Shown: one piece after another, positions 986-21,191 of the stretch
Position numbering within the stretch: the stretch's first letter is position 1
Layout of the letters: the number at the start of each line of letters is the position of its first letter
NCBI RefSeq assembly: GCF_044324875.1
Contig: NZ_CP172185.1
Reading direction: 5' to 3' (one strand)
Origin: Escherichia coli
GTDB lineage: Bacteria > Pseudomonadota > Gammaproteobacteria > Enterobacterales > Enterobacteriaceae
DNA length: 64,000 nucleotides
Program-made: the position numbers and the translations under genes
Notes under the pieces: generated by a model
Told to the model about the DNA's origin: nothing
The model's input: the letters and a program-made list of their open reading frames with translations, nothing else
Databases searched by the model: none

Positions 986-1720
986 TCAGTCGCGCACTTT
1001 GTCCGCTTTCTCCCGGGCTTCCCGCTCGAGAGAGAAAATAATCCGCTGTAATTGCCGCTCCACCGTCGGGCTGACGTTAAGAAAACGGAAGCTCAGACGG
1101 GGAGTGGTGATGGTTTCATTCTTGCCATCAATCACTTTGCGCTCGCTGATTGAGATTAACTGGGCGTCAAAGTGAAAAACACCCCATTGCCCCATGTTGA
1201 CTTCAATCTGAGCGAAGCGCATGCCTTCGTGCAATCCGGCAGGCTTTGCTGTTTCCAGTAATGCGCCCATGCCGCCTAACGACAAATCATACAGGCGGAA
1301 ACGTAACGTACTGTTATCCGCCAGTTTGGTCTGGCAAAAATAAGGCGGATGGAGTGGGGCGGAGATGCGGAAATATCGGCGTCGTTGTACAAACCACAAG
1401 GTGGGAGGCGGTACGGTAATAAATGCCGGAAGCTGCAAGTATTCACTCTGCTGTAGTTGTTCAACAGTAAATTCGACTTTCGCGCCCTGGGTTTCGGCGG
1501 TAATGGTAATGTGCTGCGCCTTTAACACAGCGTTGTTATCTTCGGCTTGACTGCCGAAATCCAGCACCAGTTTATCCGGGGTTATTGCCAGTATTTTGCT
1601 GATCAGCTGCCCGCCATTCCAACTGATACGCAAAGGAATTGCGGCTTTGTGCAAATCGCGTAACACGCCCAGGACGGCTAACGGATTTTGTTTCAGGAAC
1701 TGCTCATGGTAATGACTCAC
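986..1720 (-). CDS. ycgR: Flagellar brake protein YcgR (c-di-GMP binding, PilZ domain)
   Basis: 244-aa ORF recognised as YcgR (MSHYHEQFLKQNPLAVLGVLRDL...); convergent with emtA with a 1-bp gap. Confidence 0.92.
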   Translation of the reverse strand: MSHYHEQFLKQNPLAVLGVLRDLHKAAIPLRISWNGGQLISKILAITPDKLVLDFGSQAEDNNAVLKAQHITITAETQGAKVEFTVEQLQQSEYLQLPAFITVPPPTLWFVQRRRYFRISAPLHPPYFCQTKLADNSTLRFRLYDLSLGGMGALLETAKPAGLHEGMRFAQIEVNMGQWGVFHFDAQLISISERKVIDGKNETITTPRLSFRFLNVSPTVERQLQRIIFSLEREAREKADKVRD

Positions 1721-1755
1721 GCGGAAAAACTCCTGACTGACAAACTGTCTTTGGT

Positions 1756-1781
1756 TTATCGGTCACAGTTAACAAAACTTA
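1756..1781 (-). promoter_or_regulatory. Sigma-28 (FliA) type promoter upstream of ycgR
   Basis: Reverse complement reads TAAGTTTT-(11 nt)-CCGATAA, close to the FliA consensus TAAAGTTT-N11-GCCGATAA, about 35-60 nt upstream of the ycgR start; fits ycgR being a late flagellar gene. Confidence 0.7.
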
Positions 1782-1920
1782 ATACAAATGCGTGAATATT
1801 TTTTACATGTTGTTCTTAAATCAGCCGACATACGCCCAGCATCGATTCCGCCCTTGCCTATACTTAGAGCGTTGACGTAAGCATTTCTTGCGTCCGATTC
1901 ATCGAAACGAGGGCCTGAAC

Positions 1921-2175
1921 ATGGGAATTATTGCCTGGATTATTTTTGGCCTGATAGCCGGCATTATCGCCAAGCTAATCATGCCGGGGCGTGATGGTGG
2001 TGGATTTTTCCTGACCTGTATTCTCGGGATAGTCGGTGCGGTGGTCGGCGGCTGGCTGGCGACCATGTTTGGCATTGGCGGCTCCATCAGCGGTTTTAAT
2101 TTGCACAGCTTCCTGGTGGCGGTAGTGGGCGCTATTCTGGTGCTGGGCGTATTCCGCCTCCTGCGAAGAGAATAA
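1921..2175 (+). CDS. ymgE: Small inner-membrane protein, transglycosylase-associated (GlsB/YeaQ/YmgE) family
   Basis: ORF 1888..2175; the ATG at 1921 is preceded by GAGGG and gives an 84-aa glycine-rich two-helix membrane protein (MGIIAWIIFGLIAGIIAKLIMPG...). Confidence 0.85.
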   Translation: MGIIAWIIFGLIAGIIAKLIMPGRDGGGFFLTCILGIVGAVVGGWLATMFGIGGSISGFNLHSFLVAVVGAILVLGVFRLLRRE

Positions 2176-2187
2176 GATTTTCATAAG

Positions 2188-2220
2188 GCGGATAGCGATA
2201 CAGATGCCGCTATCCGCTTT
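2188..2220. terminator. Hairpin between convergent ymgE and the TonB-receptor gene (possible bidirectional terminator)
   Basis: GCGGATAGC (2188-2196) pairs with GCTATCCGC (2209-2217), followed by TTT; A/T-rich on the opposite strand. Confidence 0.55.
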
Positions 2221-2224
2221 CACA

Positions 2225-4195
2225 TCAGAACGTATACTCGATACCTGCCCAGAAATTGCGACCTTCTTCAATAAACCCTTCACTGTAGGCATATTTGGTA
2301 TCAAACAGGTTATTGACCGACGCATTGACGCTGAAGCCATGACCTAAGGTGTAATCGGCTCGAATGTGGGTCACCGCAAAACCGGCGGCTTTTTGTGAAC
2401 CGTCACTGTTGCTGTAGCTGGAGGAACGCGCCTCTTCCGACAGCGTTACGCTTAACGGCTCCCACGGTTTGAGAGTCATCCATGCGGTCATTGTCTGCGT
2501 TGGCAGATCGGTTATCTTGCCGATGTCTTTGCGTTTGGCGTCAGCGTGGATCAGGGCGTAGCTCAATCCTACATCCAGTATATTGCTGATTTTCCCCTTA
2601 ATACCGGCATCCAGACCGCTGTAATCCACCGTGCCGCTGTTCTGATTTTGAATGGTATCGGCATCGATATTGTGCGAGAGGATGGCATCACTCACCCGGT
2701 TATAGTAAACGCTGACCTCAAACCCCCAGTCGTGCGTGAAGGCACCATTCCAGGTTAAATCCACCCCGCGCGCGCGTTCCGGTTTGAGCTGCGGGTTAAC
2801 AATCGCTATCTGGTTATACGCAGGTTTGGACGTGGTATAGCGTTCTTTCAGCGTCGGAAAGCGTGTGCGGTCATAGTACGAAAGCGCCAGCGTGTCTTCA
2901 TTGGCAAAGTGGTATTTCCCCATCACCTGCCAGTTAAAAGCTGACTGATTGTTGTCGTCATAATGGGTGATGCTTCCATCTTTCTCATGTTTTTTCGCTT
3001 CTACGCTATCGCGCCAGTCATAGCTGATTCCAGCCACGACATCGACATTATCGGCAGCAGCCCATTGATATTCACTGGCGAGCGACCAGGTACGATCTTC
3101 ATAGCGATCGTAAGCGGCGTGCGGCGCACCTTTTTCCCGGTGTACGTCATCTTTCCAGTTAACGGCAAACGACAACAGATCGTTTTCACGCACATCGGCT
3201 GCCAGTTGTAACCCGGCACCGTCGCTGTAATCGGAATAATGGCTGTAGCTGCCTTTTTTATTTTTCAAATCAGCCAGCGAGTTGTACATCATTAGCGTAT
3301 TTTCAAAGGTGTCGCGATACAGCCGACTTTTCAGGGTAAAACGATCGTTTAGTTGGGTCGTTCCCTGATAATAAAAACTTTCTTTGTCATACTCTGGCCA
3401 CTGCCAGTAGCGTGATTTCTGACCACTATTTCCACTGTATGGCGGGTTATCTTTTTCACCATCCTGCTTAATGTAAGTCAATGTGTATTCATCGTTTTCG
3501 CGTGGTGTAAAACCGAGCTTCACAATGCCGCGTTTATCATCAGCCGATGAATTAATCATCTTGCCGTGTTTGCCTGCAATATCATTATTTACACCATGCG
3601 GCAGGCCGAGAAAATCCTGCTTTAGCTGGCTACCGCTGACTTGCAAATACCCCAGATCGCTGCTGGCGGCAAATGAAGCATGCATATCGTAGGCATTGTC
3701 CTGGCTACGGCTCCATCCCTGGCGATATCCCAGATTTGCTTCCAGAGGTTTTGTTGGCTTCTGGGTGGTGATATTAATGGCTCCGCCCATCTGATTAGGC
3801 CCCTGAAGCAGCGACGAATACCCTTTGGAAACTTCAACTGCCCCCAAATTGTTGGTCAGAATCCGCGCCAGATCGAGGTTGCCGTCATAGGGAACATAAA
3901 TGGGCACACCGTCGAAATAGACCGGCACCTGACGACTATCAAAGCCACGAACTTTGACCTGTTCTTCGTTGCGGCTACCTGACTTTTGCAGCACCACGCC
4001 GGGGACGACACTTAATGCCTGAGCGACATTCTGTTTATCCAGGGCCTTCATGGTGGGTTGATCGAGAACGGTGGTCGTCGTCGATGATACCGGACTGGAC
4101 CATACGGTCAGCGTGTCACTCTCCTGAGCCGCTACGGCCTGCTGGGTAAAGGCAAGTGATAATGCTGTGCAGAGATAACGTTTTTTGAGTCTCAT
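2225..4195 (-). CDS. TonB-dependent outer-membrane receptor (substrate unknown)
   Basis: ORF 2225..4216; the likely start is the ATG at 4195 (the 4216 start is TTG). It has a signal peptide (MRLKKRYLCTALSLAFTQQAVAAQ), a TonB-box-like DTLTVW, a plug and long beta-barrel, and a C-terminal aromatic residue (…AGIEYTF). No counterpart at this position in K-12 as I remember it. Confidence 0.85.
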   Translation of the reverse strand: MRLKKRYLCTALSLAFTQQAVAAQESDTLTVWSSPVSSTTTTVLDQPTMKALDKQNVAQALSVVPGVVLQKSGSRNEEQVKVRGFDSRQVPVYFDGVPIYVPYDGNLDLARILTNNLGAVEVSKGYSSLLQGPNQMGGAINITTQKPTKPLEANLGYRQGWSRSQDNAYDMHASFAASSDLGYLQVSGSQLKQDFLGLPHGVNNDIAGKHGKMINSSADDKRGIVKLGFTPRENDEYTLTYIKQDGEKDNPPYSGNSGQKSRYWQWPEYDKESFYYQGTTQLNDRFTLKSRLYRDTFENTLMMYNSLADLKNKKGSYSHYSDYSDGAGLQLAADVRENDLLSFAVNWKDDVHREKGAPHAAYDRYEDRTWSLASEYQWAAADNVDVVAGISYDWRDSVEAKKHEKDGSITHYDDNNQSAFNWQVMGKYHFANEDTLALSYYDRTRFPTLKERYTTSKPAYNQIAIVNPQLKPERARGVDLTWNGAFTHDWGFEVSVYYNRVSDAILSHNIDADTIQNQNSGTVDYSGLDAGIKGKISNILDVGLSYALIHADAKRKDIGKITDLPTQTMTAWMTLKPWEPLSVTLSEEARSSSYSNSDGSQKAAGFAVTHIRADYTLGHGFSVNASVNNLFDTKYAYSEGFIEEGRNFWAGIEYTF

Positions 4196-4220
4196 AGAAT
4201 AAATTCCGTTTAACAAAGAA

Positions 4221-5075
4221 TTAAATAGAGGCTGCGGGTTGCAGACTGACTTTAATGTCAGCTGGTGTCGCGTAATAAGGCGCGGAGGTAATAAAAAGGC
4301 GAATGCCGCAGTCGAGGTAATTTTTGAGTGTTGTCAGATTAATTCCACCGGTCAGAGCCAGCGTGCAGTGAGGAGCCAGCGACGGTGCTATTTGCGCAAT
4401 TTCAGTTGCCTGTTGCGGACTAAATTTGTCGAGCTGAAGTACGTCTGGTTGCGCGCGTAACGCGGCGATTGCCTCTTTCGGCGTGTCGGCTTCAACAACT
4501 ATTTTCTTCTCGGGTGCGTGGCGACGTAACTGATTGATTGCGCCTGACCAGTCCTGATTGTCATGAAGAAAATGACGGTGGTTGGCAAACAATAATATGG
4601 TTTCCGCACATCCGGCACGATGAATCAGTCCTCCGGCAGCCAGAATTGCCTGCGAGGCCAGTAAGCGGGTGCCCGGAATCGCTTTTCGGGTGCAGGCGAT
4701 ATTGCCATCAGGGTAACGTTCACGAAGTAACGCCAGCATTTGAGCGAGATAATCAGAAACACCGCAACTCCACTCCAGCACATTCTGGACTGCCTTCCAT
4801 CCCTGATGAAGTGCTGCGGCATTACCCTGCGCACGGATTAGCCGCTGACGCGCGTTCGCTTGTGAACCGTCGCTGACCGCGTCATCAATAGTTAATCCCA
4901 GCGTAGTTAACATCTTACACGCGACAGAAATTCCGCTGACGCAGCCGCCCTGACGGTGAAAAAACTCTATATAGCCATGCTGGTGTCCAATATTTAATGC
5001 TCGCGTGGTCAGGTCACCGCCCTGGATATCTTCCAGAAGTAACGCATCGATTTGTGCCTGAGAAAGGAAAATCAT
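4221..5075 (-). CDS. ModD-like protein (NadC / quinolinate phosphoribosyltransferase fold family)
   Basis: 284-aa ORF with blocks alignable by eye to NadC (…TRKAIPGTRLLASQAILAAGG…, …VVEADTPKEAIAALRAQPDVLQLDKF…). Family assignment is from motif recognition only, with no profile search. Confidence 0.6.
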   Translation of the reverse strand: MIFLSQAQIDALLLEDIQGGDLTTRALNIGHQHGYIEFFHRQGGCVSGISVACKMLTTLGLTIDDAVSDGSQANARQRLIRAQGNAAALHQGWKAVQNVLEWSCGVSDYLAQMLALLRERYPDGNIACTRKAIPGTRLLASQAILAAGGLIHRAGCAETILLFANHRHFLHDNQDWSGAINQLRRHAPEKKIVVEADTPKEAIAALRAQPDVLQLDKFSPQQATEIAQIAPSLAPHCTLALTGGINLTTLKNYLDCGIRLFITSAPYYATPADIKVSLQPAASI

Positions 5076-5884
5076 CGCAGTGCCTCTTGCGGTACGCTAT
5101 CCCACCAGATGAGCGCCCAGTCGCGGCTGGCAGGGGCGAGGGCACGAGCATCTTGTTGTTGATACCAGCGATATAACCGCTCACGCTCATCGTCGTTAAG
5201 TGCGCCCAGACTCCAGCTGACGTTCTGCTCAAAACGTTCCCAGGTGCTGTTATCCTGTTGGCAATTTTGTCCACGGATAAAATCAACGTGAGCATAAATT
5301 CCCATCTGATACAGGACGTTGAGCGCAAAGATATAGTTGGGTAATTCGATCACTTCCCGACCAGCCGCCCGCTGAATGGCTGGAGAGACGAACGAGGTGC
5401 TGACCAGATGAGTCGTATAGACGCGAAGCCGTGCCTGATTATTCAGTTTGCTCATTGCCTGGCGCATATCAGCCACCAGAGTGGAGCGGGAAGCCACGGC
5501 AATATCGCAGCGTGGCAGGTCACTCCAGTCCTCTTCCCAGGCGCGCTGGATCCAGTGGACATTGTCTGCCTTTAGCGCGGCGGCGCGACGGGCGGCAACC
5601 TTCAGCATCCCCTGACTGTAATCAACGCCATAAATCGTCGTGAGTTTGTCAGCCAGCGCCAGCGATACGGTACCCGGTCCGCAGCCCATATCGAATAAGG
5701 TCTGCGCGCCTTGCAGATCAATTTTAGCGGTCAGTTGTTGCAGGTAGCTGTCCGTAGGCGAGGCGCAATTTTCCGCCATTTTTTCCGCCCGTTGATCCCA
5801 GTGATCCGGCGTTTTTTCTGTGCGGTGGGCCAGTTTGAGTTGCTGCAGGTAAAGGTCCGCAAAATCAATATCATCAATGAGCAT
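5072..5884 (-). CDS. Class I SAM-dependent methyltransferase
   Basis: 270-aa ORF with the Rossmann motif I LFDMGCGPG and acidic motif II (IYGVDYS); start overlaps the ModD-like stop by 4 bp (ATGA), indicating translational coupling. Confidence 0.7.
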   Translation of the reverse strand: MLIDDIDFADLYLQQLKLAHRTEKTPDHWDQRAEKMAENCASPTDSYLQQLTAKIDLQGAQTLFDMGCGPGTVSLALADKLTTIYGVDYSQGMLKVAARRAAALKADNVHWIQRAWEEDWSDLPRCDIAVASRSTLVADMRQAMSKLNNQARLRVYTTHLVSTSFVSPAIQRAAGREVIELPNYIFALNVLYQMGIYAHVDFIRGQNCQQDNSTWERFEQNVSWSLGALNDDERERLYRWYQQQDARALAPASRDWALIWWDSVPQEALR

Positions 5885-5893
5885 GATTGTTCC

Positions 5894-6652
5894 TTAGTGG
5901 CTAATTGCAGAGAGGTGATGATGAATCTGGTCGGCAGAAACCCGATACAGGGCAGCCAGTTTGTTCGTTGTTAACTGTTCGGTCGGTAAGCCTTGTGTTA
6001 CTCGTCCATCTGGCTCTACCTGGATAATGCTGTCGGCAATGGCGTTGGCATGGAGCGGATGATGAGTCGACATTAGCATTGTCATGCCGTTATTTTTGAG
6101 CTGCGCCAGCGTGTCCAGTAGTTGGATCTGATGACCGAAATCGAGGCTGGAGGCAGGCTCATCCAGTAATAACAAGCGCGGTTGCTGGACGAGTGCACGG
6201 GCGATTAAAGCCAGCTGACGTTCACCGCCGCTAAGCGTATTCCAGCGTCGTGTCGCCAGATGCAAAATGCCCAGCTTTTCCAGTTGCTCCGTTGCTTTCA
6301 GGCGTTCTTGCTTACCGGGAACGGAAAAAGCGCCTATGGTGGGGGCCAGGCCCATCAACACCATATCCAGCACACTAAAAGCAAAAACGCCGTCGTGCGC
6401 CTGCGGCACCCAGGCAATAGCCTGCGCGCGTTGGCGATGGCTGAGTGTCTGCACAGGGAGGCTATCCAGTAAGATCTCGCCTTTTCATAACGGTATAACG
6501 CCAAGAATGGAGCGCATGAGTGTGGTTTTGCCGCAACCATTGGCTCCTAACAGACAACAAATTGTTCCTTGCGACAGGGTGAAGGACACGTCGCGTAGCA
6601 CCGGATGGCGGGAGTAACCCAGAGACGCATGACGGACGGCAAGCAAAGTCAC
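5894..6652 (-). pseudogene. ABC transporter ATP-binding protein (FecE/BtuD-like) interrupted by an in-frame TGA
   Basis: Track ORFs 6485..6790 (Walker A GANGCGKTTLMRSILGVIPL) and 5894..6454 (LSGGERQ signature, Walker B LLLLDEP) are in the same frame, separated only by TGA at 6485-6487 (complement). Read through, the sequence is contiguous (…ILGVIPL*KGEILLDSLPVQTLSHRQRAQAIAWVPQ…). The proposed GTG start at 6652 overlaps the permease stop (GTGA). Confidence 0.8.
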
Positions 6653-7629
6653 TGGCGACCTCCGCGTAACAACAAAAACAGGAAAAACGGTGCACCAACA
6701 AAAGCGGTCAGAATGCCAAGTGGGATTTCTGTTGTTCCAATGCTGCGTGCCAGCGTATCGGTAAGCAGGAGCAGAATCGCGCCAGTACACATTGCCATGG
6801 GCAACAGCTGCTGATGGTTATGACCGGTCAACAAGCGAGCAATGTGCGGAACGACCAGGCCGACCCAACCAATTATGCCCGCTATTGCTACCGTGCTGGC
6901 GGTGATTAGTGTGGCGCAGACAATTAATCCAAAGCGCAGACGTGTCACGTTCAGTCCCAGCGAACGGGCTTCGTCGTCGGAAAGCGTGAGTAAATTCATG
7001 CGCCAGCGGAGAAAAAACAGGGGCAAGGAGCCTATGAGAATGATCGGTGCAGCATAGCAGAGATCGCGTAAGGTCACGGTGGACAGCCCCCCCAGCAACC
7101 AGAAGGTAATTGACGGTAACTGGGTGTAAGGATCGGCCAGCGTTTTTATTAGCGATATCCCCGCTCCGCACAACGTTCCTAACGCAATGCCTACCAGCAC
7201 CAGGGTTAAGATCGGATCGTGGCGGGTCACCCGACGCGTAATCAACCAGACGCCCGCGACCACCATCAGCCCGCCGCAAAATGCGTACAGCTGGATGTAA
7301 ACAATGGATAATCCCCACAGGATTGCCGCGCAGGCACCAAGTCCGGCACCGGCGGAGACGCCTAAAATATCCGGTGACACTAAGGGATTACGGAACATTC
7401 CCTGATAGGTGGTTCCGGCCCCTGCCAGCGCCGCGCCCAGAAACAGCGCAGCAAGAATACGCGGCACGCGGATTTGCCAGAAGACAATTTGTTCCTGCAC
7501 AGGAACATTTTCTTGACGAAGAATGAGCGCCAGCAGTTGCTGTATATCGAGATGATAAGCCCCACTTACGGCGGCAAAAGTGATACTGATAGCTGCCAGC
7601 AGCAAAATACATCCGTTTACGGTTCTCAT
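6649..7629 (-). CDS. ABC transporter permease, FecCD/BtuC family
   Basis: 326-aa multi-helix membrane ORF typical of iron-siderophore/cobalamin-type permeases; start overlaps the binding-protein stop (ATGA). Confidence 0.85.
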   Translation of the reverse strand: MRTVNGCILLLAAISITFAAVSGAYHLDIQQLLALILRQENVPVQEQIVFWQIRVPRILAALFLGAALAGAGTTYQGMFRNPLVSPDILGVSAGAGLGACAAILWGLSIVYIQLYAFCGGLMVVAGVWLITRRVTRHDPILTLVLVGIALGTLCGAGISLIKTLADPYTQLPSITFWLLGGLSTVTLRDLCYAAPIILIGSLPLFFLRWRMNLLTLSDDEARSLGLNVTRLRFGLIVCATLITASTVAIAGIIGWVGLVVPHIARLLTGHNHQQLLPMAMCTGAILLLLTDTLARSIGTTEIPLGILTAFVGAPFFLFLLLRGGRQ

Positions 7630-8651
7630 TAGCTCGTCACCAATTTTTGATAGTCGGCGTCACTTAATGGGCAATGCCAGAACAGTTGGGCGTAATGCTG
7701 CATGTCACTTTTAAACTGGCGATTGATGGCGGGATCCAGCCAGGCGTGAAGTCTGCGTAATCCCAGAAGACGGTTGATTCCCGGCGGGGCATCCAGCCAG
7801 CCAAAGGGCAGGCCACTTAAAAATAAGATGCGTTGTTCCGCAACCGCTTTCACGCCCTGCCAGAGAGGATCACGACGAATAAAATCTGCAGTAACGGCCT
7901 CCTGAACCAGAATAATATCCGGCTGCCAGCGCAGGAGATTTTCCATGGAAACCTGTGTCAGACCGTGGCGATCGGCTATTTGCGCGACGTTATGCAAACC
8001 TAATAATTCCGCCGCCTCGGTATGCAACGAACCCTGTAAGCCCGTTTCCAGCCCTCGAGGACCGCGCGCAGCATAAAAGCTGAGGTTAGCGGCGGGTGAG
8101 GTGGCGAATGCCTGAGCTTCACCAACGAAGCGGCTGGCGAGATTGGCTTGTTCTGCGGCGCGGTGCTCTTCGCCTAACGTTTTGCCAAGCGTTGTTAACT
8201 GTTCTGCTGATTGTTCCAGTTTCCCGTTAAGCAATAACCAGGGTATTTGTGTCTGTTCGCTAACCTGCCGTGCCTGGGAGATCCAGGTTTCATCCGTATT
8301 GCCGCAATCAACGACCAAATCGGGATGTAACGCCATAAGCCCTTCCAGCGAGAGTGTGCTGGCGCGCCCGGCGAGTCGTCCCAGCCTGGGTAACTGGCGA
8401 ATGTGCTCTGGCAATGGAATTAATGCCTGACGGGCAAAATCAAAAGAGGAAAAACCGACCATTTTTTCTGGCGCGACAGCCAGCAATAGCAAATCGGCGG
8501 GCGCACCTGCGCTGACGATGCGTGTAATGTTTTGGGCTTCGGGAAGCGTCAGTGAGGCCCAGAATTTGACTGATTGTGCAAAAGAAGGCAGATGATGCAG
8601 GAACAACGTCGACGCAAGAATCTGTGTAAACCTCCGTCTGGTTAGTGACAT
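7629..8651 (-). CDS. Periplasmic substrate-binding protein of the ABC importer, with a twin-arginine-like signal
   Basis: 340-aa ORF; N-terminus MSLTRRRFTQILASTLFLHHLPSFAQS has T-R-R-x-F, a hydrophobic core and an AxA-like site; first gene of a six-gene minus-strand operon. Confidence 0.75.
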   Translation of the reverse strand: MSLTRRRFTQILASTLFLHHLPSFAQSVKFWASLTLPEAQNITRIVSAGAPADLLLLAVAPEKMVGFSSFDFARQALIPLPEHIRQLPRLGRLAGRASTLSLEGLMALHPDLVVDCGNTDETWISQARQVSEQTQIPWLLLNGKLEQSAEQLTTLGKTLGEEHRAAEQANLASRFVGEAQAFATSPAANLSFYAARGPRGLETGLQGSLHTEAAELLGLHNVAQIADRHGLTQVSMENLLRWQPDIILVQEAVTADFIRRDPLWQGVKAVAEQRILFLSGLPFGWLDAPPGINRLLGLRRLHAWLDPAINRQFKSDMQHYAQLFWHCPLSDADYQKLVTS

Positions 8652-8920
8652 AAGTTATATCCTGATAATTAAAACCGCTATATATTTACATATATATCGA
8701 AAAAAATCATGTTTGATGTCAAAATTTGTCTAAAGAGACAGAATGATTTGCTTGTTGCTTAAATAACACTTTGTTCCACAAGAAAATTGTCAGGGAGAAT
8801 GGCGGAGTGGCAAAAAATATAAATAGAGGTGTAATGATTAACAAATTGATAAAATAAAATTAAAATCTTCTCTGATAAAAGAAAATAAAGGCATAGACCG
8901 TAGAATGGGGGGCATTTCGT

Positions 8921-8967
8921 GGCGAAAAAAGAGCAATGCCAATTTTATGCACATAATGGCATTGCTC
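8921..8967 (-). terminator. Candidate intrinsic terminator downstream of treA
   Basis: Perfect 11-bp inverted repeat GAGCAATGCCA (8931-8941) / TGGCATTGCTC (8957-8967) with a 15-nt loop, followed on the minus strand by a T-tract (complement of GGCGAAAAAAGA). Confidence 0.6.
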
Positions 8968-8981
8968 GATATACAGCAAAG

Positions 8982-10679
8982 TTAAGGCGTAGGTTCCGCC
9001 TCTTTTTGTTTTACCGGCTGTGTTGTTGATTCACTGAGTGGACGCGTCGCCGGAACATTGTCACACGGTTGCTCTTTCGGGCAGAGCAAATCCAGCATTT
9101 TCAGCGTCACGCCATTGGTCCAGCCAAAGCCATCCTGTAATGGATATTCGCCACCGCCGCCCCCTGTTCCGGTGGTGCTGACATCATATTTCTCGACCAG
9201 CTTCTTCTCCCGGTCATAAGTGTGCTGAACATTGGTCAGGAAGTGCCAGCTAATGTCCATCGCCACCTCGTTCTGCCCGTAGTTTTGCAACCCTTCTGTC
9301 GCCACCCATTGCAGGGGAGCCCAGCCATTTGGCGCATCCCATTGCTGTCCACTTTTCACCGACGTGGTGTTCAGGCCGCCTGGTTGCAGCAGATGTGTTT
9401 TCGTCGCCGTCGCCATTTTGTTGGCGCGATCTTTCGCTGCCGCATTGACGTACAGCGGGAACAGGGCGGCAGCGGTTAACTGATTGCGCACTTTATGACT
9501 TTTCAGGTCGTAATCGGCATACCAGCCTTGTTGATCGTTCCACAGGTATTTTTCGATCCCTTTTTGACGGGCATTCGCCAGCGTTTCGTACTGGTTTGCC
9601 ATCGCGTTATCTCCGGAAGCTTTGCTGGCGCGGGCGAGGATTTTTTCCATTTTAAACATCAGGCTGTTCAGATCGACCGGTACGATGCTGGTGGTGCGTA
9701 AGGTATTTAACTGCTGCGGATTGTCCATCCAGCGCGAGCTGAAATCCCAGCCAGACGCAGCGGCAGAGCGCAGGTCGCGGTAAATTTCAGTGGCAGGTCG
9801 ATTCGGATTGCTTTTGGCGGTGGCAATATCTTCCACCCATGACTCTGGTCGTGGCGTATCGCGATCGTCCCAGTAGCGGTTGAGAAGGGTACCATCCTGA
9901 AGTTTTACAACGCGTTTTTCCTGTTGTCCGGCTTGCAGGTTTTCAACACCGTCCATCCAGTAAGCATATTCTTTTTGCATTTGCGGCAGGTATTGCTTCA
10001 ACGCGGCATCGCCTTCATGCTGCGCCAGTAACTCTACCATCAGGGCAAAGAAGGGCGGCTGCGAGCGACTTAAATAGTAACTGCGGTTGCCGTTGGGAAT
10101 ATGACCGTAAGTGTCTATTTCATGAGCAAAATTGGCCACCATATCCGCGACTTTATCCCAGTGACCGCTTTCGGCAAGCCCCAGCATGGTGAAGTAACTG
10201 TCCCAGTAATACACTTCGCGAAAACGTCCTCCCGGCACGACATAGGGTTCCGGTAACGGCAACAGAGAATCCCATTTCTCGGTACTTTCGGTAGAACGGG
10301 TTAACACCGGCCAAAGTCCGTCTATATGTTCGCGTAGTGATTGCCCCTCTGGCGGAACATATTTCTCGCCCTCTTTCGGCAGGGTGAAATTGACGTTAAC
10401 GAAATGGCGCAGATCAAATCCGCTCTGGTTTTGCTGCATCCGATAATCAGCAAGGATCATCAGCGGATCGCTGTTCGGCACGGCATCGGCAAAGGTTTTT
10501 TGGTCCGGAAAAAGTTTGGCGTTTTGCACATCATTAAACAGCGGCCCTAATAAAATATCAGGCGGCTGTGGCGTTACCGGTGTTTCTTCTGCCTGCACCG
10601 ATAGCGCAGCGAAACACAAAAAGATGCAGGTTGGAATTAACGCCATTTTTAGCGGGCGAGAAGCTGCGGGGGATTTCAT
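8982..10679 (-). CDS. treA: Periplasmic trehalase
   Basis: ORF 8982..10682; the protein ([32 protein letters not shown]…) is recognised as TreA with signal peptide. The start is placed at the second Met to match the remembered 565-aa protein. Confidence 0.93.
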
Positions 10680-10997
10680 CAATCATTCTCCTTTGGCGAA
10701 ACCGAATAAAACGGTATTCAAGTATCAGAAAACCTTAGTTCAGGATCGCACTAGCTGCATGATCGAAATCTCATTCTGCGAACGGTCAGGCATTTTAGAA
10801 AAGGGAATTAAAGGGATAAATAACGTCGAAATAGAGTGAACAAATAACGTCTGTTTGTTAGCCAGCCAGCGGCGTTGGGTTCGCGATTAGCGAAGAAAAA
10901 TCATCACAAATTGGTGAAAAATATAACAGGTAGTTAAAAACATCCGTGCAGAGTAAATAGCCGGATGACATCAGAACGATGCCATCCTAACTGTGGT

Positions 10998-12416
10998 TTA
11001 ACCCTGACGGCTGAAACGTTGCGTTTTAACGTCCAGCGTTAGCGTTTCTTCTGGTTGTATCGCATACAGTTTCTCACCCTGCTGGCAAATCCAGCCAATC
11101 CCCAGTTCACGGGCGATCAGGGCGCTGTGGGATAGCGGACTTCCGGCGCTAAGGCAGATACCTTTTACAACCGCCGGATCCAGTTGCAGTATTGTGGAGG
11201 GATAGATGTTCTCCGCCAGTAGAATAGTTGGCGAGTTAAACTGCGGGAGTTCTTCTTTCGTTTGGGTCAGGTGGACCAGGGTGCGATGCAGAAGATCGTC
11301 CACATCAATATAGCGAGCCTGTAGATATTCATCATCCAGTTGCTGGTATTGCTGGCTAAGTTCTTTAAGAACTTGCTGCCAGGCATATTCTGCCGTGCAA
11401 TGTTCATGCTGAAGGAGTTCGCTTGCCGCTGCCAGCAGTTCCGGATCATCTAACAGTGTATGGTGACCAGAAAAGATTGCGGCAATATCGTCAAGCCCGC
11501 TGGCTTCTGCTTTCGCTGTTAACGTCATCAGATCTAATAACGTGAAGTCAATGGCCTGGCGTAATCGTTCTTGTTCTTCATCCACGGTCAGGGTTGATTT
11601 TGCCTGTACCGTACATAAAACCGGTTGATAATAAAAGGTTTTACCCGAAACAGGCGGAACGGGACGCAGAATAGGTGGAGCAACTTCCTCCGTTTCACCA
11701 AAGTTATCTTCAGCCAGCTGACGGAAAGCGATCAGTGCCTCTTCAGCTTCTGGCCCTTTCGCAATCAGGCGCAGCGTATCGTTATAGCGAACTTGTAGTA
11801 ACGCAATCTGGTTAATACTCTCCGGTGTGACGCATTTGCCGTTTTTCTCCAGCAACATATCGGCATTAAATGTCGATAAGGTATAAACCAGCCGGGAGGC
11901 CGGACGTACATGCAGGCCGTTACGGTTTTTAATGACCACCGCCAGAGAACGGGCTTCTTCATCGTAGGCAGGACATGACTCAGAGATTTCAGTGTCGGAG
12001 GAGGGTAAACCCAGTTGTTCACGTTTGGCTTCCAGCGCATGCATGGCGTCAAAGATAACTTTGTCGATATCCGCCCCCGAGGCCGCGCTGACCGTTGCTG
12101 CCAGTGTACCTTCGACCAACGGCGCAGCACACAAACGTACTTTTGCGGCGATCTCGGGAGCCAGCAATTCCAGCGCAGTTTCAGCACTCAATAATGCGCT
12201 ACCCATATCCATCATGACCAGCACATGGTCGGCATCGGCAACAGATTCGATGGCCTCCATCACTTTGACGGCATCGGTACCAATGGGATTTTGTGGATCG
12301 TCAATTCCCGCGGCAATGGCGATTTTACAACTATCACTCATTAACATCTGACGGGCTAATTCACCGACACCTTCTCCCAGTCGGCTGCTATGTGAAACTA
12401 TGACCAGGTTTACCAT
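10998..12416 (-). CDS. dhaM: Dihydroxyacetone kinase phosphotransferase subunit DhaM (PTS EIIA-HPr-EI fusion)
   Basis: ORF 10998..12422; the sequence from MVNLVIVSHSSRLGEGVGELARQ… is recognised as DhaM. Confidence 0.92.
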   Translation of the reverse strand: MVNLVIVSHSSRLGEGVGELARQMLMSDSCKIAIAAGIDDPQNPIGTDAVKVMEAIESVADADHVLVMMDMGSALLSAETALELLAPEIAAKVRLCAAPLVEGTLAATVSAASGADIDKVIFDAMHALEAKREQLGLPSSDTEISESCPAYDEEARSLAVVIKNRNGLHVRPASRLVYTLSTFNADMLLEKNGKCVTPESINQIALLQVRYNDTLRLIAKGPEAEEALIAFRQLAEDNFGETEEVAPPILRPVPPVSGKTFYYQPVLCTVQAKSTLTVDEEQERLRQAIDFTLLDLMTLTAKAEASGLDDIAAIFSGHHTLLDDPELLAAASELLQHEHCTAEYAWQQVLKELSQQYQQLDDEYLQARYIDVDDLLHRTLVHLTQTKEELPQFNSPTILLAENIYPSTILQLDPAVVKGICLSAGSPLSHSALIARELGIGWICQQGEKLYAIQPEETLTLDVKTQRFSRQG

Positions 12417-16386: not shown

Positions 16387-19254
16387 TTAAAAGCTGAATC
16401 GATATCCTCCGTTGACTTGCTTCTGATCAAAGAGGTTACCCTGCGTGTAATCCGCTTCGAGATAGAATGTGTGCTGTTTGTTATACTGTGCACTGACTCC
16501 CACGCCGTTATTCCAGCCATTACCTTTGAAACTGTACTTCTCCCGGGAGTTGTTCAACAGATATTCGGTATCCCCTGAAAACTCGCGGATAGCGCCAGTC
16601 TTCACATAGACATTCAGCTGGCTGTTGCCTGCGGTGATGTCATATCCCAGTATCATGCTGGCACGCCCCAGCAGCGATTCGTAGTGATTCAGATGTATAT
16701 TGAGGCCATTACTCGCCTTCATAGCCATCTCATTCTGGTGGCTGTATGTGAGCTGGGTTTGCGGCTCTATATAGAACCCATAACCAGTAGGGGTCAGGTT
16801 GAACCTCTGCCCGGCTTCCAGGGCGATACTCATTCCATTCGCAGTGCCGTTGGCATTAACGCCGTTGTTCTGACTGTCCAGTACGTGGAAACTATTTTTC
16901 TGGCGTGATGCTTTTACAACGAGATCGCTGTAAAAACCGCTGTGTGCCATGTAACTGGCGTACATTCCCATGTAGTCTGAACGTGCGGTACCGTCGCCTC
17001 CGCTATAGTCCGGCGATGCATGTGTTGAGCCAATATACAGACCGACATACAACGGCATTTCATCAGAGAGACGTTTATCCCCACCAAACTGGATACCGCT
17101 GTAACCCATGTCAAAGCCGCTCAGTTTGCCACTGGCAAAGGAGTCCAGGCTTCCCCCATAACTGCGCAACCAGATATTACCGTCTTTACTCTGATTTCGC
17201 AGGTCACCCATCCGTTGCATCAGCGTACGGTTTTCAACATAGTTCAATAAGTAACCGACATTGAGATAATTGCCGCCAGCATCTGCAGTCGTGGTGGGTT
17301 TAGGCGTGGGAGCGGGGGCAGGCGTAGGATCGGGGTTGACTATGGGAGGCTGAGCGGGAGCTGGTGTGGGTTCAGGATTAGGAGTCGGTTCCGGAACTGT
17401 CCCGGAAGCGTAAAGCTCCCAGTTAGTGCCATTTTTACGCACATCGTACAGATATCCCCCCAACTCAACCTGAGAAGACGCGCTGAACGAGGCCGCACCG
17501 TCAGTGGTTTTTACCACTGTCAGAACTTCATTTCCCGTTGTGGCCTCGCTGCCCTGGTTGCGGATAGCCAATACGTGATTACCAGCACTACTCCCGCTGA
17601 TATTCAATAAATCCCCTTTATTATTAACGCCATTACCCTCGCCAACAACATCAGCACGCATAATAAAGGTACTGTTACCGCTCAGGTTCTCTACGTTTAA
17701 TGTGGTAAATGTGCCGGCAGTTGACCCGTGGCTGGCAAAATCGACAGTTGAATGGCTCAGCGCCAGCGTGTCGAGATTAGAATTACTTGTTACGTTCCAG
17801 ACGCTGTTATTCATTGCAACGTCCAGTTTCCCGCCATTGACATTATCGCTGAGGGAAGAACCTGTCCAAACCGACCCAGGGTGCATATCCAGATTGATTA
17901 GCCCACCTTTGGAAAGAACGCTACCGTTGATAAGCATACGACCCGAGGCGTTGATGCGGCTGGCGGCATAACCATCGTCATGTTGCGTTGCGATGGCCAT
18001 CTGGTCGGGTGTACTCATATCAATGACCAGATCGCTCGTGAGGTCGATCTGGCTGTTGGTCATGGCATAAATTCCCCTGGCTCCTGCCGCGCCGGTGATA
18101 GCCAAACTGTCTCCGGTTATTCTACCGCCGCTGAGCGCCCACAAACCCAGCGCCAGACTGCCATTACGATCAACCGTAATATCGGTATTTTGCATGTTGA
18201 CAACAGCCGTTGCCGTCTGGGCTGAGGCACCATAAGAACCGCTGGAAAAGATGCTGTTTCGTTGCGCTGCCGTGCCAGAAAAATTGATTGTCGCGTCTGA
18301 ACCACTGGTTACGAGGCCACCGCCCTGCGCGGAAGAAATATGGCTATCAGCACCGATAGTGGTTGTACCACCACGAACTTCGACGCCATTTGCCGCGGCT
18401 CCAGTTACATCAACAGTGAGTGCATTCGCGCTCACCTGGCCAAAGCTCCAGAGGCCGTGTGCATTATCGCCATTGGTTTTAATGGTACTGTTTGTTCCGA
18501 GATCGACAACAGAGTTTTTCTGTACGTTTATCCCCATGGCGCTGTAGCCCTGAACATCGATTGTCAGGTCTGTCGCCGTAAAACGCGCAGCACCATTGGC
18601 GTTATTGCCGTTGAGACCACCGATATAAACACCTGTACTTCCATCGGTCTTGATTTTACTTCCGCTTCCAAGATCGACACTGGTGCCATAGTCATTGATT
18701 GTTAGGCCTATACCGTTCGAGTTTTCAATGGTGAATTGAGTGGCTGTTAGTGTTGAGCTATGTCTAATAATGATGCCGTCATCGTTACTCTTAATGGTGC
18801 TGCCTGTGCCTAAGTCAGCATGGGTATAGTCACCAATTAAATTAATGCCGATGGCAGAGGTTTGACCAACAACATCTACTGTAAGTCGGTTAGCTGTCAG
18901 GGAGCTGTTCTTGCCCTGAATAATGATTCCCTTTGCATATCCAGAGGCGTCGTTGACATTGACGGTGACATCATTACCCAGGTTGATATTGCCAGGCGTG
19001 TTTCCTGCTGGGGTCATTACACCATAGAGGTTTCCTGATGGATCGGCGGTATCTCCTGTAATTCTGTCACCATCATTAATAGTAATATTGGTGCCATTTT
19101 GACTTCCTAAATCAGCAGCTATCAGCAGGGGGGAAAAGATAATTGCATTCAAACCAATAGCGCCATATTTTATCAGTTGAATGGAGGGCGAACGGATTTT
19201 TAATTCAGCGAGACGATCGGCTTTGGTATTCCCATTGTGTTGTTTGATGCCCAT
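16387..19254 (-). CDS. ycgV: Autotransporter (type Va) adhesin-like protein
   Basis: 955-aa ORF with a signal region, a long Gly/Thr/Asn-rich beta-helical passenger, a Pro/Thr-rich linker (PEPTPNPEPTPAPAQPPIVNPDPTPAPAPTPKPTTT) and a C-terminal beta-barrel ending …GGYRFSF. Confidence 0.88.
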   Translation of the reverse strand: MGIKQHNGNTKADRLAELKIRSPSIQLIKYGAIGLNAIIFSPLLIAADLGSQNGTNITINDGDRITGDTADPSGNLYGVMTPAGNTPGNINLGNDVTVNVNDASGYAKGIIIQGKNSSLTANRLTVDVVGQTSAIGINLIGDYTHADLGTGSTIKSNDDGIIIRHSSTLTATQFTIENSNGIGLTINDYGTSVDLGSGSKIKTDGSTGVYIGGLNGNNANGAARFTATDLTIDVQGYSAMGINVQKNSVVDLGTNSTIKTNGDNAHGLWSFGQVSANALTVDVTGAAANGVEVRGGTTTIGADSHISSAQGGGLVTSGSDATINFSGTAAQRNSIFSSGSYGASAQTATAVVNMQNTDITVDRNGSLALGLWALSGGRITGDSLAITGAAGARGIYAMTNSQIDLTSDLVIDMSTPDQMAIATQHDDGYAASRINASGRMLINGSVLSKGGLINLDMHPGSVWTGSSLSDNVNGGKLDVAMNNSVWNVTSNSNLDTLALSHSTVDFASHGSTAGTFTTLNVENLSGNSTFIMRADVVGEGNGVNNKGDLLNISGSSAGNHVLAIRNQGSEATTGNEVLTVVKTTDGAASFSASSQVELGGYLYDVRKNGTNWELYASGTVPEPTPNPEPTPAPAQPPIVNPDPTPAPAPTPKPTTTADAGGNYLNVGYLLNYVENRTLMQRMGDLRNQSKDGNIWLRSYGGSLDSFASGKLSGFDMGYSGIQFGGDKRLSDEMPLYVGLYIGSTHASPDYSGGDGTARSDYMGMYASYMAHSGFYSDLVVKASRQKNSFHVLDSQNNGVNANGTANGMSIALEAGQRFNLTPTGYGFYIEPQTQLTYSHQNEMAMKASNGLNIHLNHYESLLGRASMILGYDITAGNSQLNVYVKTGAIREFSGDTEYLLNNSREKYSFKGNGWNNGVGVSAQYNKQHTFYLEADYTQGNLFDQKQVNGGYRFSF

Positions 19255-19547: not shown

Positions 19548-19802
19548 TTGGTGAATATTTTTGGTAATAATCCTAATTGGTTATGGGATTTTCGCTTGAT
19601 GTATCTGCATAACAAAAACAATATGAGCCATTTTTGCATTACTAATAAGAAAAAGCAAAAAACATCGATATTCATTTTTGATCAATGGATTTTCTGGCAT
19701 ATCGTTATTATCGTGATACTGGTTATCATTTTCATCTTGCCAGGATCGCACGTAATCACGTTATTCGGGGATTTTATCTGCGGGATATTACCCTTCAGGT
19801 AA
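19548..19802 (+). CDS. Hypothetical small hydrophobic protein (84 aa) in the AT-rich ycgV-ychF intergenic region
   Basis: ORF-track entry only; the product has a long hydrophobic stretch (IFWHIVIIVILVIIFILPG). No obvious RBS and a very AT-rich context, so it may not be expressed. Confidence 0.2.
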   Translation: MVNIFGNNPNWLWDFRLMYLHNKNNMSHFCITNKKKQKTSIFIFDQWIFWHIVIIVILVIIFILPGSHVITLFGDFICGILPFR

Positions 19803-20099: not shown

Positions 20100-21191
20100 T
20101 TAGACGTTGAACAGGAAGTTCATTACATCGCCATCTTTAACGATGTAATCTTTGCCTTCTGCACGCATTTTGCCTGCTTCTTTCGCGCCTTGTTCACCTT
20201 TGTAAGTGATGAAATCTTCAAACGAGATGGTTTGTGCACGGATAAAGCCTTTTTCAAAATCAGTATGGATTTTGCCAGCGGCCTGCGGCGCGGTTGCACC
20301 AACCGGAATGGTCCATGCACGTACTTCTTTCACCCCAGCGGTGAAGTAAGTTTGCAGGTTCAGCAGCTTATAACCGGCACGGATCACACGGTTCAGGCCC
20401 GGCTCTTCCAGCCCAAGCTCCTGCATAAACTCGTCACGTTCTTCGTCGTCCAGTTCGGCAATGTCTGCTTCAACAGCAGCACAAACCGGAACCACAACAG
20501 AACCTTCTTTCGCCGCGATTTCACGCACCTGGTCAAGATACGGGTTGTTTTCAAAACCGTCTTCGTTGACGTTGGCGATGTACATTGTTGGTTTCAGCGT
20601 CAGGAAGCTCAGGTAACGAATAGCCGCTTTCTCTTCAGCGCTTAAATCCAGCGCGCGCAGCATACCTGCGTTTTCCAGCTGCGGCAGGCATTTTTCCAGT
20701 ACCGCCAGCTCGGCTTTCGCGTCTTTATCGCCACCTTTGGCTTTCTTCTGTACGCGATGAATCGCACGTTCGCAGGTGTCGAGGTCTGCCAGCGCCAGTT
20801 CGGTGTTGATAACTTCAATATCATCCGCCGGGTTAACTTTGCCGGAAACGTGAATGATGTTGTCATTTTCAAAGCAGCGAACAACGTGACCGATCGCTTC
20901 AGTTTCACGGATGTTGGTCAGGAACTGGTTACCCAGACCTTCGCCTTTCGATGCGCCTTTTACCAGACCGGCGATATCGACAAATTCCATGGTCGTGGGA
21001 AGCGTACGCTGCGGTTTTACGATTTCAGCCAGTTGATCCAGGCGAGGGTCAGGCATTGGTACGACGCCTGTGTTCGGCTCGATGGTACAGAATGGAAAGT
21101 TGGCCGCTTCAATACCGGCTTTGGTCAGCGCGTTGAACAGGGTAGATTTCCCGACGTTGGGCAAACCGACGATACCGCATTTGAATCCCAT
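20100..21191 (-). CDS. ychF: Ribosome-binding ATPase YchF (Obg-family GTPase fold)
   Basis: 363-aa [26 protein letters not shown]… with the G1 motif and TGS domain. Confidence 0.95.

Follow-up and report, generated by a model that had tools for sequence, protein, structure and literature searches.

A minus-strand cluster of six genes occupies positions 2225-8651 of the 64-kb stretch of Escherichia coli DNA analysed here (contig NZ_CP172185.1; hereafter the window), where the open reading frame (ORF) table and the translations place it between ymgE and treA. It encodes a TonB-dependent outer-membrane receptor, an ATP-binding cassette (ABC) importer and two enzymes, and it is almost certainly the locus already named and catalogued as prrA-modD-yc73-fepC. 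We report a ModE operator just upstream of the first gene, which matches the ModE core at every position and is conserved across genera. The cluster itself and its name were already known; the operator had been overlooked in an earlier note on this DNA, made from the sequence alone. Control of the operon by ModE appears likely. With somewhat more confidence than doubt, we read the operon as a ModE-repressed, TonB-dependent system of the MolBC-A type that would acquire molybdate or tungstate, free or complexed. Its functional assignment as an iron system is probably wrong, and we find that the published iron-uptake label is unsupported by the regulatory and homology evidence of this analysis.

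The operator lies at positions 8676-8699, 25-48 nt upstream of the ATG of the binding-protein gene, and reads CGATATATA-TGTAAA-TATATAGCG on the minus strand. It is a perfect palindrome that agrees with the core CGnTATATA-N6-TATATAnCG at 16 of 16 positions, and the extended site (8674-8701) agrees at 18 of 20 with the E. coli ModE consensus ATCGNTATATA-N6-TATATANCGAT (PMC545781). No other site in the 64 kb of the window matched with two mismatches or fewer, the number expected by chance being 0.00. A consensus -35 hexamer, TTGACA (8717-8722, minus strand), was recognized by reading the sequence and by cross-genus alignment; it precedes the left arm of the operator by 17-20 nt, and with the hexamer so placed, the -10 element must fall within that left arm, which is the layout expected for repression. 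We rely for this arrangement on its conservation across genera and not on a sigma-70 scan, which placed no promoter on the operator and returned sites no more frequently than in shuffled sequence. A Shine-Dalgarno sequence, AGGA (8660-8663, minus strand), stands 8 nt ahead of the binding-protein ATG, and the surrounding TCAGGAT is kept in several genera. RNA folding placed the intrinsic terminator of treA, an 11-bp stem followed by U6, at 8925-8967 on the minus strand (-18.6 kcal/mol, z = -3.7, with none of 200 shuffled sequences folding as well). Because this strong terminator separates treA from the operon, the operon needs a promoter of its own.

Conservation of the operator was analysed in related loci. 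Eighty loci from other species were gathered with a profile of the methyltransferase, and the set scanned for operators comprised 81 loci (1.37 Mb), including three obtained earlier, at a threshold of at least 14 of the 16 core positions. Of the 79 sites that reached this threshold, 73 were located at most 150 nt ahead of a binding-protein, receptor or methyltransferase gene: 40 preceded the binding-protein gene, 28 the receptor gene (in Shewanella, Morganella, Proteus, Providencia and Pectobacterium) and 5 the methyltransferase gene where it comes first (Edwardsiella and others), with 6 elsewhere. When the upstream regions of 11 loci from seven genera (Escherichia, Citrobacter, Raoultella, Klebsiella, Serratia, Pectobacterium and Shewanella) were aligned, the only conserved islands in otherwise diverged sequence were a TTGA(C/T) hexamer and the operator. 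The order binding protein-permease-ATPase-methyltransferase-ModD-receptor is also kept in Escherichia, Citrobacter, Serratia, Raoultella, Klebsiella, Enterobacter, Pectobacterium, Erwinia, Morganella, Proteus and Providencia. That both operator and gene order persist across many genera at 42-94% protein identity argues for purifying selection on the whole system.

Molybdate-related genes were found next to the cluster in other lineages. In Pectobacterium, a gene for a 142-aa di-Mop molybdate-binding protein (two TIGR00638 and two TOBE matches) adjoins the operon, and similar genes adjoin it in Burkholderiales loci. The gene order in the Burkholderiales is receptor-DUF2478-binding protein-permease-ATPase-methyltransferase, and genes of the ModD-like and Mop kinds are found close by. 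An E. coli-type ModE box ahead of the binding-protein gene was present in none of the betaproteobacterial loci scanned. In these loci the receptor gene leads, and three of them have weaker sites (13-14 of 16) 92-120 nt upstream of it. In the Betaproteobacteria and in metagenome relatives, the gene that replaces ModD between the receptor and binding-protein genes belongs to DUF2478 (PF10649) and has no NCBIfam match. As a separate observation, six of the loci gathered (L004, L030, L033, L038, L039 and L088) hold the methyltransferase gene alone, with no match to the other five proteins; in one of them, from Shewanella avicenniae (L004), this lone gene adjoins a transposase gene.

The six genes are tightly packed. 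The binding-protein and permease genes overlap by 1 nt and the permease and ATPase genes by 4 nt; a 9-nt gap separates the ATPase and methyltransferase genes, the methyltransferase and modD genes overlap by 4 nt, and 25 nt lie between modD and the receptor gene. These junctions bear out the description in the earlier note of a single operon for a TonB-dependent receptor and an ABC importer with two embedded enzyme genes, and its family assignments agreed with our NCBIfam and Pfam searches.

The transporter proteins point in the same direction as the operator. For the FecCD-family type II permease (6649-7629, minus strand; 326 aa), the best PDB match was H. influenzae HI1471, or MolB (5.9e-65, 223 bits, 43% identity over 313 aligned positions). 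Other solved matches were FhuB (175 bits), HmuU (168 bits) and BtuC (146 bits), the last being the weakest of the solved type II permeases. When the intact form of the fepC-like ATPase was used as query, HI1470 (MolC) was the top PDB match among importer ATPases, with 126.6 bits. The relationship of both proteins to MolB and MolC is that of a one-way PDB search. The periplasmic binding protein (7629-8651, minus strand; 340 aa) belongs to Peripla_BP_2 (PF01497) and to cluster A. Its nearest solved structures by both sequence and fold were 4pag, whose ligand is unassigned, and then MolA (3psa). In the fold ranking obtained with a structural model (predicted local distance difference test score, pLDDT, 88.5), MolA was third, with template modelling (TM) scores of 0.66-0.69 and ~20% identity, and was the closest structure of known ligand. 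This modelled resemblance to MolA is no more than suggestive. The N-terminus of the protein (encoded at window 8622-8651) carries a twin-arginine signal, TRRRF, and since the motif (T/S/N/H)-R-R-x-F/L is kept across genera, export by the twin-arginine translocation (Tat) pathway rather than by Sec is predicted.

The receptor gene, prrA (2225-4195, minus strand; 656 aa), has an identical counterpart that RefSeq annotates in the closest E. coli genome. Its translation begins with a signal peptide followed by a TonB-box-like DTLTVW and ends in YTF. PrrA matched TonB receptor models over its full length, and Pfam assigned Plug and TonB_dep_Rec domains to its orthologues, which are 50-94% identical and stand at the operon end in other genera. 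Regarding substrate specificity, its NCBIfam matches were weak, below cutoff and spread over generic TonB siderophore, hemin, B12 and copper receptor families, and the PDB sequence search gave matches at the level of the plug domain only. The searchable literature yielded no TonB-dependent receptor linked to molybdate.

All in all, the operator, the MolB-like permease, the MolC match of the ATPase, the distant resemblance of the binding protein to MolA and the neighbouring Mop genes point to molybdate or tungstate, which we judge, on balance, to be the probable substrate. In the mechanism that we propose, scarce cytoplasmic molybdate would release ModE from the promoter-overlapping operator, and the six genes would be transcribed as a unit. 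PrrA would then use TonB energy to move molybdate or tungstate, free or bound to a small ligand, across the outer membrane, and the Tat-exported cluster-A binding protein would pass the substrate to the MolBC-type (type II) ABC importer. ModD and Yc73 would act in the cytoplasm within the same molybdate-starvation response.

The closest known relative of such a system would be the type II molybdate/tungstate importer of the H. influenzae mol cluster (HI1469-HI1473, with MolBC-A encoded by HI1470, HI1471 and HI1472), to which the permease and the ATPase are related as described above. In this cluster HI1473 is a putative ModD, and HI1469 might be a counterpart of Yc73. MolBC-A imports molybdate, and added molybdate represses molB 10-fold through a coupling factor that was not identified (PMC4031551). 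Repression by molybdate is what the canonical ModE operator predicts for the E. coli operon as well. The E. coli operon differs in that it includes a TonB-dependent receptor, and its binding protein has diverged from MolA. A second comparison is provided by the E. coli ModE regulon itself, with which the cluster shares a ModE-consensus operator that overlaps the promoter region just upstream of a transporter operon; modA has this same promoter-overlapping layout. ModABC, the high-affinity molybdate transporter, belongs to the type I importers; its binding protein is of class II, and it has no outer-membrane receptor of its own. The importer of the cluster is of type II and its binding protein of cluster A, and the cluster adds a TonB-dependent receptor as well as the two enzymes. 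In overall architecture and protein families it resembles BtuB-BtuCDF, FhuA-FhuBCD, FecA-FecBCDE and HmuR-HmuTUV, from which it differs in that neither a cobalamin riboswitch nor a convincing Fur box was found, in that the corresponding family models match far below cutoff and in that two enzyme genes lie inside the operon.

Several points weigh against molybdate or tungstate acquisition under ModE control. The binding protein is only ~20% identical to MolA and closer to 4pag, and iron-chelate binders are not far behind. No clear -10 hexamer occurs at 17-nt spacing from the -35 element in E. coli. The searchable literature labels the cluster an iron system. ModE binding, repression by molybdate and molybdate/tungstate transport at the E. 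coli locus, together with the roles of the two enzymes, are all inferred from sequence. TonB-dependent receptors normally serve bulky or very scarce ligands, and porins are the route usually assumed for free molybdate. Finally, H. influenzae MolA is reported to bind molybdate and tungstate specifically but with low affinity, and deletion of mol in that species gave no phenotype at low molybdate (PMC4031551), so that free molybdate may not be the physiological ligand.

These last points are also the strength of an alternative that keeps ModE control and changes the substrate, which we regard as rather unlikely. According to it, the imported compound would be organic and either bear molybdenum or tungsten or spare molybdenum, such as a "molybdophore" or a pterin related to the molybdenum cofactor, and ModD and Yc73 would process its organic part after import. 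In these families, a TonB-dependent receptor paired with a type II importer typically handles bulky ligands, for instance B12, heme or siderophores. A molybdophore would also explain the weak binding of free molybdate by H. influenzae MolA, and the two small-molecule enzymes are kept inside the operon across Enterobacterales loci. The intact operon might then be a dedicated TonB route in Enterobacterales for a molybdenum-ligand complex or a cofactor-related compound, with ModD and Yc73 forming a new ModE-controlled pathway that makes or recycles the organic partner, a tentative idea that we likewise hold to be rather unlikely. There is no candidate ligand to name, and MolA was reported to bind the bare oxyanions specifically (PMC4031551).

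The enzymes themselves bear on this alternative from both sides. ModD (4221-5075, minus strand; 284 aa) scored 498.4 bits against TIGR01334, well above the cutoff of 178.85, and 133.5 bits against the NadC model TIGR00078, below its cutoff of 198.4; its best PDB matches were quinolinate phosphoribosyltransferases (QPRTases). It shares with NadC the fold and the active-site residues T129-R130-K131, H152-R153, E195 and D216, which align with those of the M. tuberculosis QPRTase, the enzyme whose structures assign their roles. Unlike in NadC, the position equivalent to M. tuberculosis Lys172 is occupied by phenylalanine (F163) in 57 of 57 ModD orthologues, leaving the basic pocket that binds quinolinate incomplete. 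Catalytic residues of the phosphoribosyl pyrophosphate (PRPP) type combined with this single substrate-pocket change, which agree with processing of an organic compound, argue that ModD, which is not NadC, is probably an active phosphoribosyltransferase with a different, less acidic substrate. No demonstrated function of ModD was found in the searchable literature. In Geobacter sulfurreducens, ModD is part of a modDABC operon with a predicted ModE site (PMC545781, Table 6). Yc73 (5072-5884, minus strand; 270 aa) is a class I S-adenosylmethionine (SAM)-dependent methyltransferase of the small-molecule type, matching Pfam Methyltransf_25, 31, 11 and 12. No NCBIfam family reached its cutoff, and the AlphaFold model (pLDDT 89.5) showed a loose likeness to natural-product and small-molecule methyltransferases (TM ~0.5). 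With respect to its substrate, the NCBIfam, PDB sequence and fold searches gave generic class I small-molecule methyltransferases only. An identification of Yc73 as CpaM ("corrinoid protein-associated methyltransferase"), its best NCBIfam match, was rejected at 43 bits against a cutoff of 180 and was not used as evidence.

The distribution of the enzymes speaks against an obligatory role in processing the imported compound. Edwardsiella and Leminorella carry the methyltransferase and ModD genes only, without the transporter, and the two-gene remnant of Edwardsiella has its own ModE operator, overlapped by the sequence TTGACG-N17-CATTAT; Shewanella loci contain the transporter without ModD. Enzymes and importer can thus work apart, and we read ModD and Yc73 as part of a molybdate-starvation response not obligatorily tied to an imported compound. 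The suggestion of the earlier note that the embedded enzymes chemically process what is imported is weakened by the Edwardsiella arrangement.

Iron-chelate uptake is the function given to the cluster in the literature. In O157, ECs1693-1699 (OI#55/S-loop#83) correspond to prrA-modD-yc73-fepC, with ECs1698-1699 being adjacent putative transport proteins, and an involvement in iron uptake was proposed (PMC1890555); in the avian pathogenic E. coli (APEC) strain BEN2908, the 6,382-bp prrA-modD-yc73-fepC region was described as "possibly mediating iron uptake" (PMC12928451). The copies in O157 and other E. coli are 98-99.6% identical in DNA to the one in the window and have the same six genes in the same order over ~6.4 kb, and the copy of an O157 genome (98% identity) is identically annotated. 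In the searchable literature we came upon neither a functional study of the cluster nor any mention of its ModE site; an earlier mention elsewhere is possible. The earlier note had allowed that the six genes might turn out to be a named system of defined substrate. The name does exist (PMC1890555, PMC12928451), and the substrate is not defined, none having been reported from experiments in the searchable literature on the cluster.

If the operon served iron, a siderophore-type ferric complex would enter through PrrA and reach the cytoplasm by way of the ABC transporter, and its ligand would be modified by the enzymes. The RefSeq product names ("TonB-dependent siderophore receptor", "iron ABC transporter substrate-binding protein") agree with this, the FecCD and Peripla_BP_2 families mostly comprise iron-chelate, heme or B12 systems, and several iron-related binding proteins were among the fold matches of the binding protein. 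In contrast, no Fur box was found within three mismatches near the locus, and the best match in the 330-bp promoter region (8652-8981) scored 13 of 19, which is chance level, there being 141 sites of at least 12 of 19 in the 64-kb window. The conserved upstream elements are the -35 hexamer and the ModE operator only, all NCBIfam matches to iron families were far under cutoff, the permease is closest to MolB, and the neighbours in other lineages are molybdate-binding Mop genes and not siderophore biosynthesis genes. We consider this explanation, which draws on family names and fails the Fur-box test, improbable. A Fur-box candidate first noted by eye in the promoter region was rejected, the 12-13 of 19 matches of that region being at chance level. 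The best Fur-like site of the window (16 of 19) is located elsewhere, at 19715-19733, in the gap that separates a ycgV-like autotransporter gene (16387-19254) from ychF (20100-21191), both on the minus strand.

In the strain from which the window derives, the importer is interrupted. The earlier note had listed six ORFs; five are open as it claimed, and the ATPase ORF (5894-6652, minus strand; 252 aa in its intact form) is broken by a TGA at codon 56. Translation and alignment to the closest E. coli genome placed this premature stop (L56*, TTA>TGA) at 6485-6487 on the minus strand, with 6486 as the changed base; the closest genome has TTA (Leu) at that codon, the sole difference within the ATPase gene, and all six of its genes are intact. 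The Walker A loop is encoded on the upstream side of the stop and is missing from the longest ORF that remains (5894-6454, 186 aa). A search for an identical 61-mer centred on the change found the TGA allele nowhere among the 2,139 E. coli records with this segment, which indicates either a nonsense mutation private to this strain or an error of sequencing. In the sequence as given, the ATPase gene is a pseudogene, and the importer of this strain is predicted to be without a functional ATPase. Since the ATPase is truncated, import through the cluster is probably abolished, and the uptake system of this strain is probably non-functional.

Of the 5,426 complete E. coli genomes compared, 2,139 (39%) have the 7.6-kb region over its full length; the remaining matching genomes have the flanks only, with ycgY between them. 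The ymgE and treA flanks, and the presence of ycgY alone between them in K-12-type genomes, were as the earlier note had stated. Alignment with a K-12-type genome located the exact junctions at window 2248/2249 and 8980/8981; between them, K-12-type genomes have 622 bp, ycgY included, in place of the 6,732 bp present here. Up to 2248, the K-12-type sequence equals the window save for one base, and it is unrelated thereafter, so that the last 7 codons and the stop of prrA (2225-2248, minus strand; 24 nt) remain at the left junction, next to ymgE, as a deletion scar. E. albertii and several Citrobacter species likewise have the cluster between treA and ymgE, and it adjoins treA in Raoultella, Intestinirhabdus and one Enterobacter. 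Its placement in E. albertii and Citrobacter argues for an ancestral presence at this site, followed by loss in K-12-like lineages, and against an inserted island. We thus interpret it as an ancestral Escherichia/Citrobacter operon lost from ~60% of E. coli, including K-12. The term "accessory DNA" used in the earlier note holds insofar as the cluster is absent from K-12-type genomes, and this placement together with the prrA scar indicates ancestry followed by loss. Separately, 8-12 copies of the cluster were found on records typed as plasmids, and some E. coli genomes hold it at two or three places.

The methyltransferase gene is also interrupted in some strains. In O157 strain FRIK1989, codon 215 of the gene that corresponds to 5072-5884 is a stop (W215*, TGG>TAG; L003:4041-4043), which RefSeq annotates as "internal stop"; the allele is common to 196 E. 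coli records, with O157 strains among those listed. An interrupted methyltransferase fits the five ORFs (ECs1693-1697) of Sakai for four named genes. In the same FRIK1989 genome, the treA gene beside the cluster is annotated as a frameshifted pseudogene (L003:7788-8606).

Losses of this kind could mean that the cluster is an evolutionary remnant, decaying in E. coli and with little present function: ~61% of complete E. coli genomes are without it, the ATPase gene is interrupted by a nonsense mutation private to the present strain, and the W215* allele is shared by many records. We find this very unlikely, given that none of the six genes is broken in the closest genome and only one here, and that operator and gene order are kept across genera despite the protein divergence noted above. 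Uptake and remodelling of a corrinoid or tetrapyrrole, the substrate contemplated in the earlier note, is scarcely credible and was not borne out: the CpaM match of Yc73, weak PDB matches of the same protein to precorrin methyltransferases and matches of the permease to BtuC models are what speaks for it, while every corrinoid-related match is far under cutoff, the permease is nearer to MolB (223 bits) than to BtuC (146 bits) or HmuU, the conserved regulatory element is a ModE operator, and no Rfam match of any kind, cobalamin riboswitch included, was obtained at E<=1 on either strand of 1500-11000.

The assignment of the cluster matters for the interpretation of pathogenic strains. Molybdenum-cofactor enzymes (nitrate, formate and dimethyl sulphoxide/trimethylamine N-oxide respiration) drive the growth of Enterobacteriaceae in the inflamed gut and in the urinary tract, and tungstate has been explored as a poison of these enzymes. 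Comparative genomics of extraintestinal pathogenic E. coli (ExPEC), APEC and O157 treats the cluster as an "iron-uptake virulence gene". If ModE-controlled acquisition of molybdate or tungstate were its function, these genotype-phenotype readings and the RefSeq product names would need revision, and pathogenic E. coli would have a second route for molybdate that is absent from K-12. An intact copy of the operon makes both a molybdate-linked TonB receptor and the function of ModD testable in a tractable organism.

Two further observations were made at the locus and in the database searches. On a 3,168-bp contig of a metagenome-assembled genome (MAG) labelled "Collinsella sp." (Actinobacteria; JAIJJM010000374.1), the encoded proteins reach 99-100% identity to the ATPase, the methyltransferase and ModD of E. 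coli; binning contamination is most likely. In the window, a 10-bp inverted repeat (GCGGATAGCG...CGCTATCCGC) is located at 2188-2217, between the convergent genes ymgE and prrA; it is common to K-12-type genomes and is probably the terminator of ymgE.

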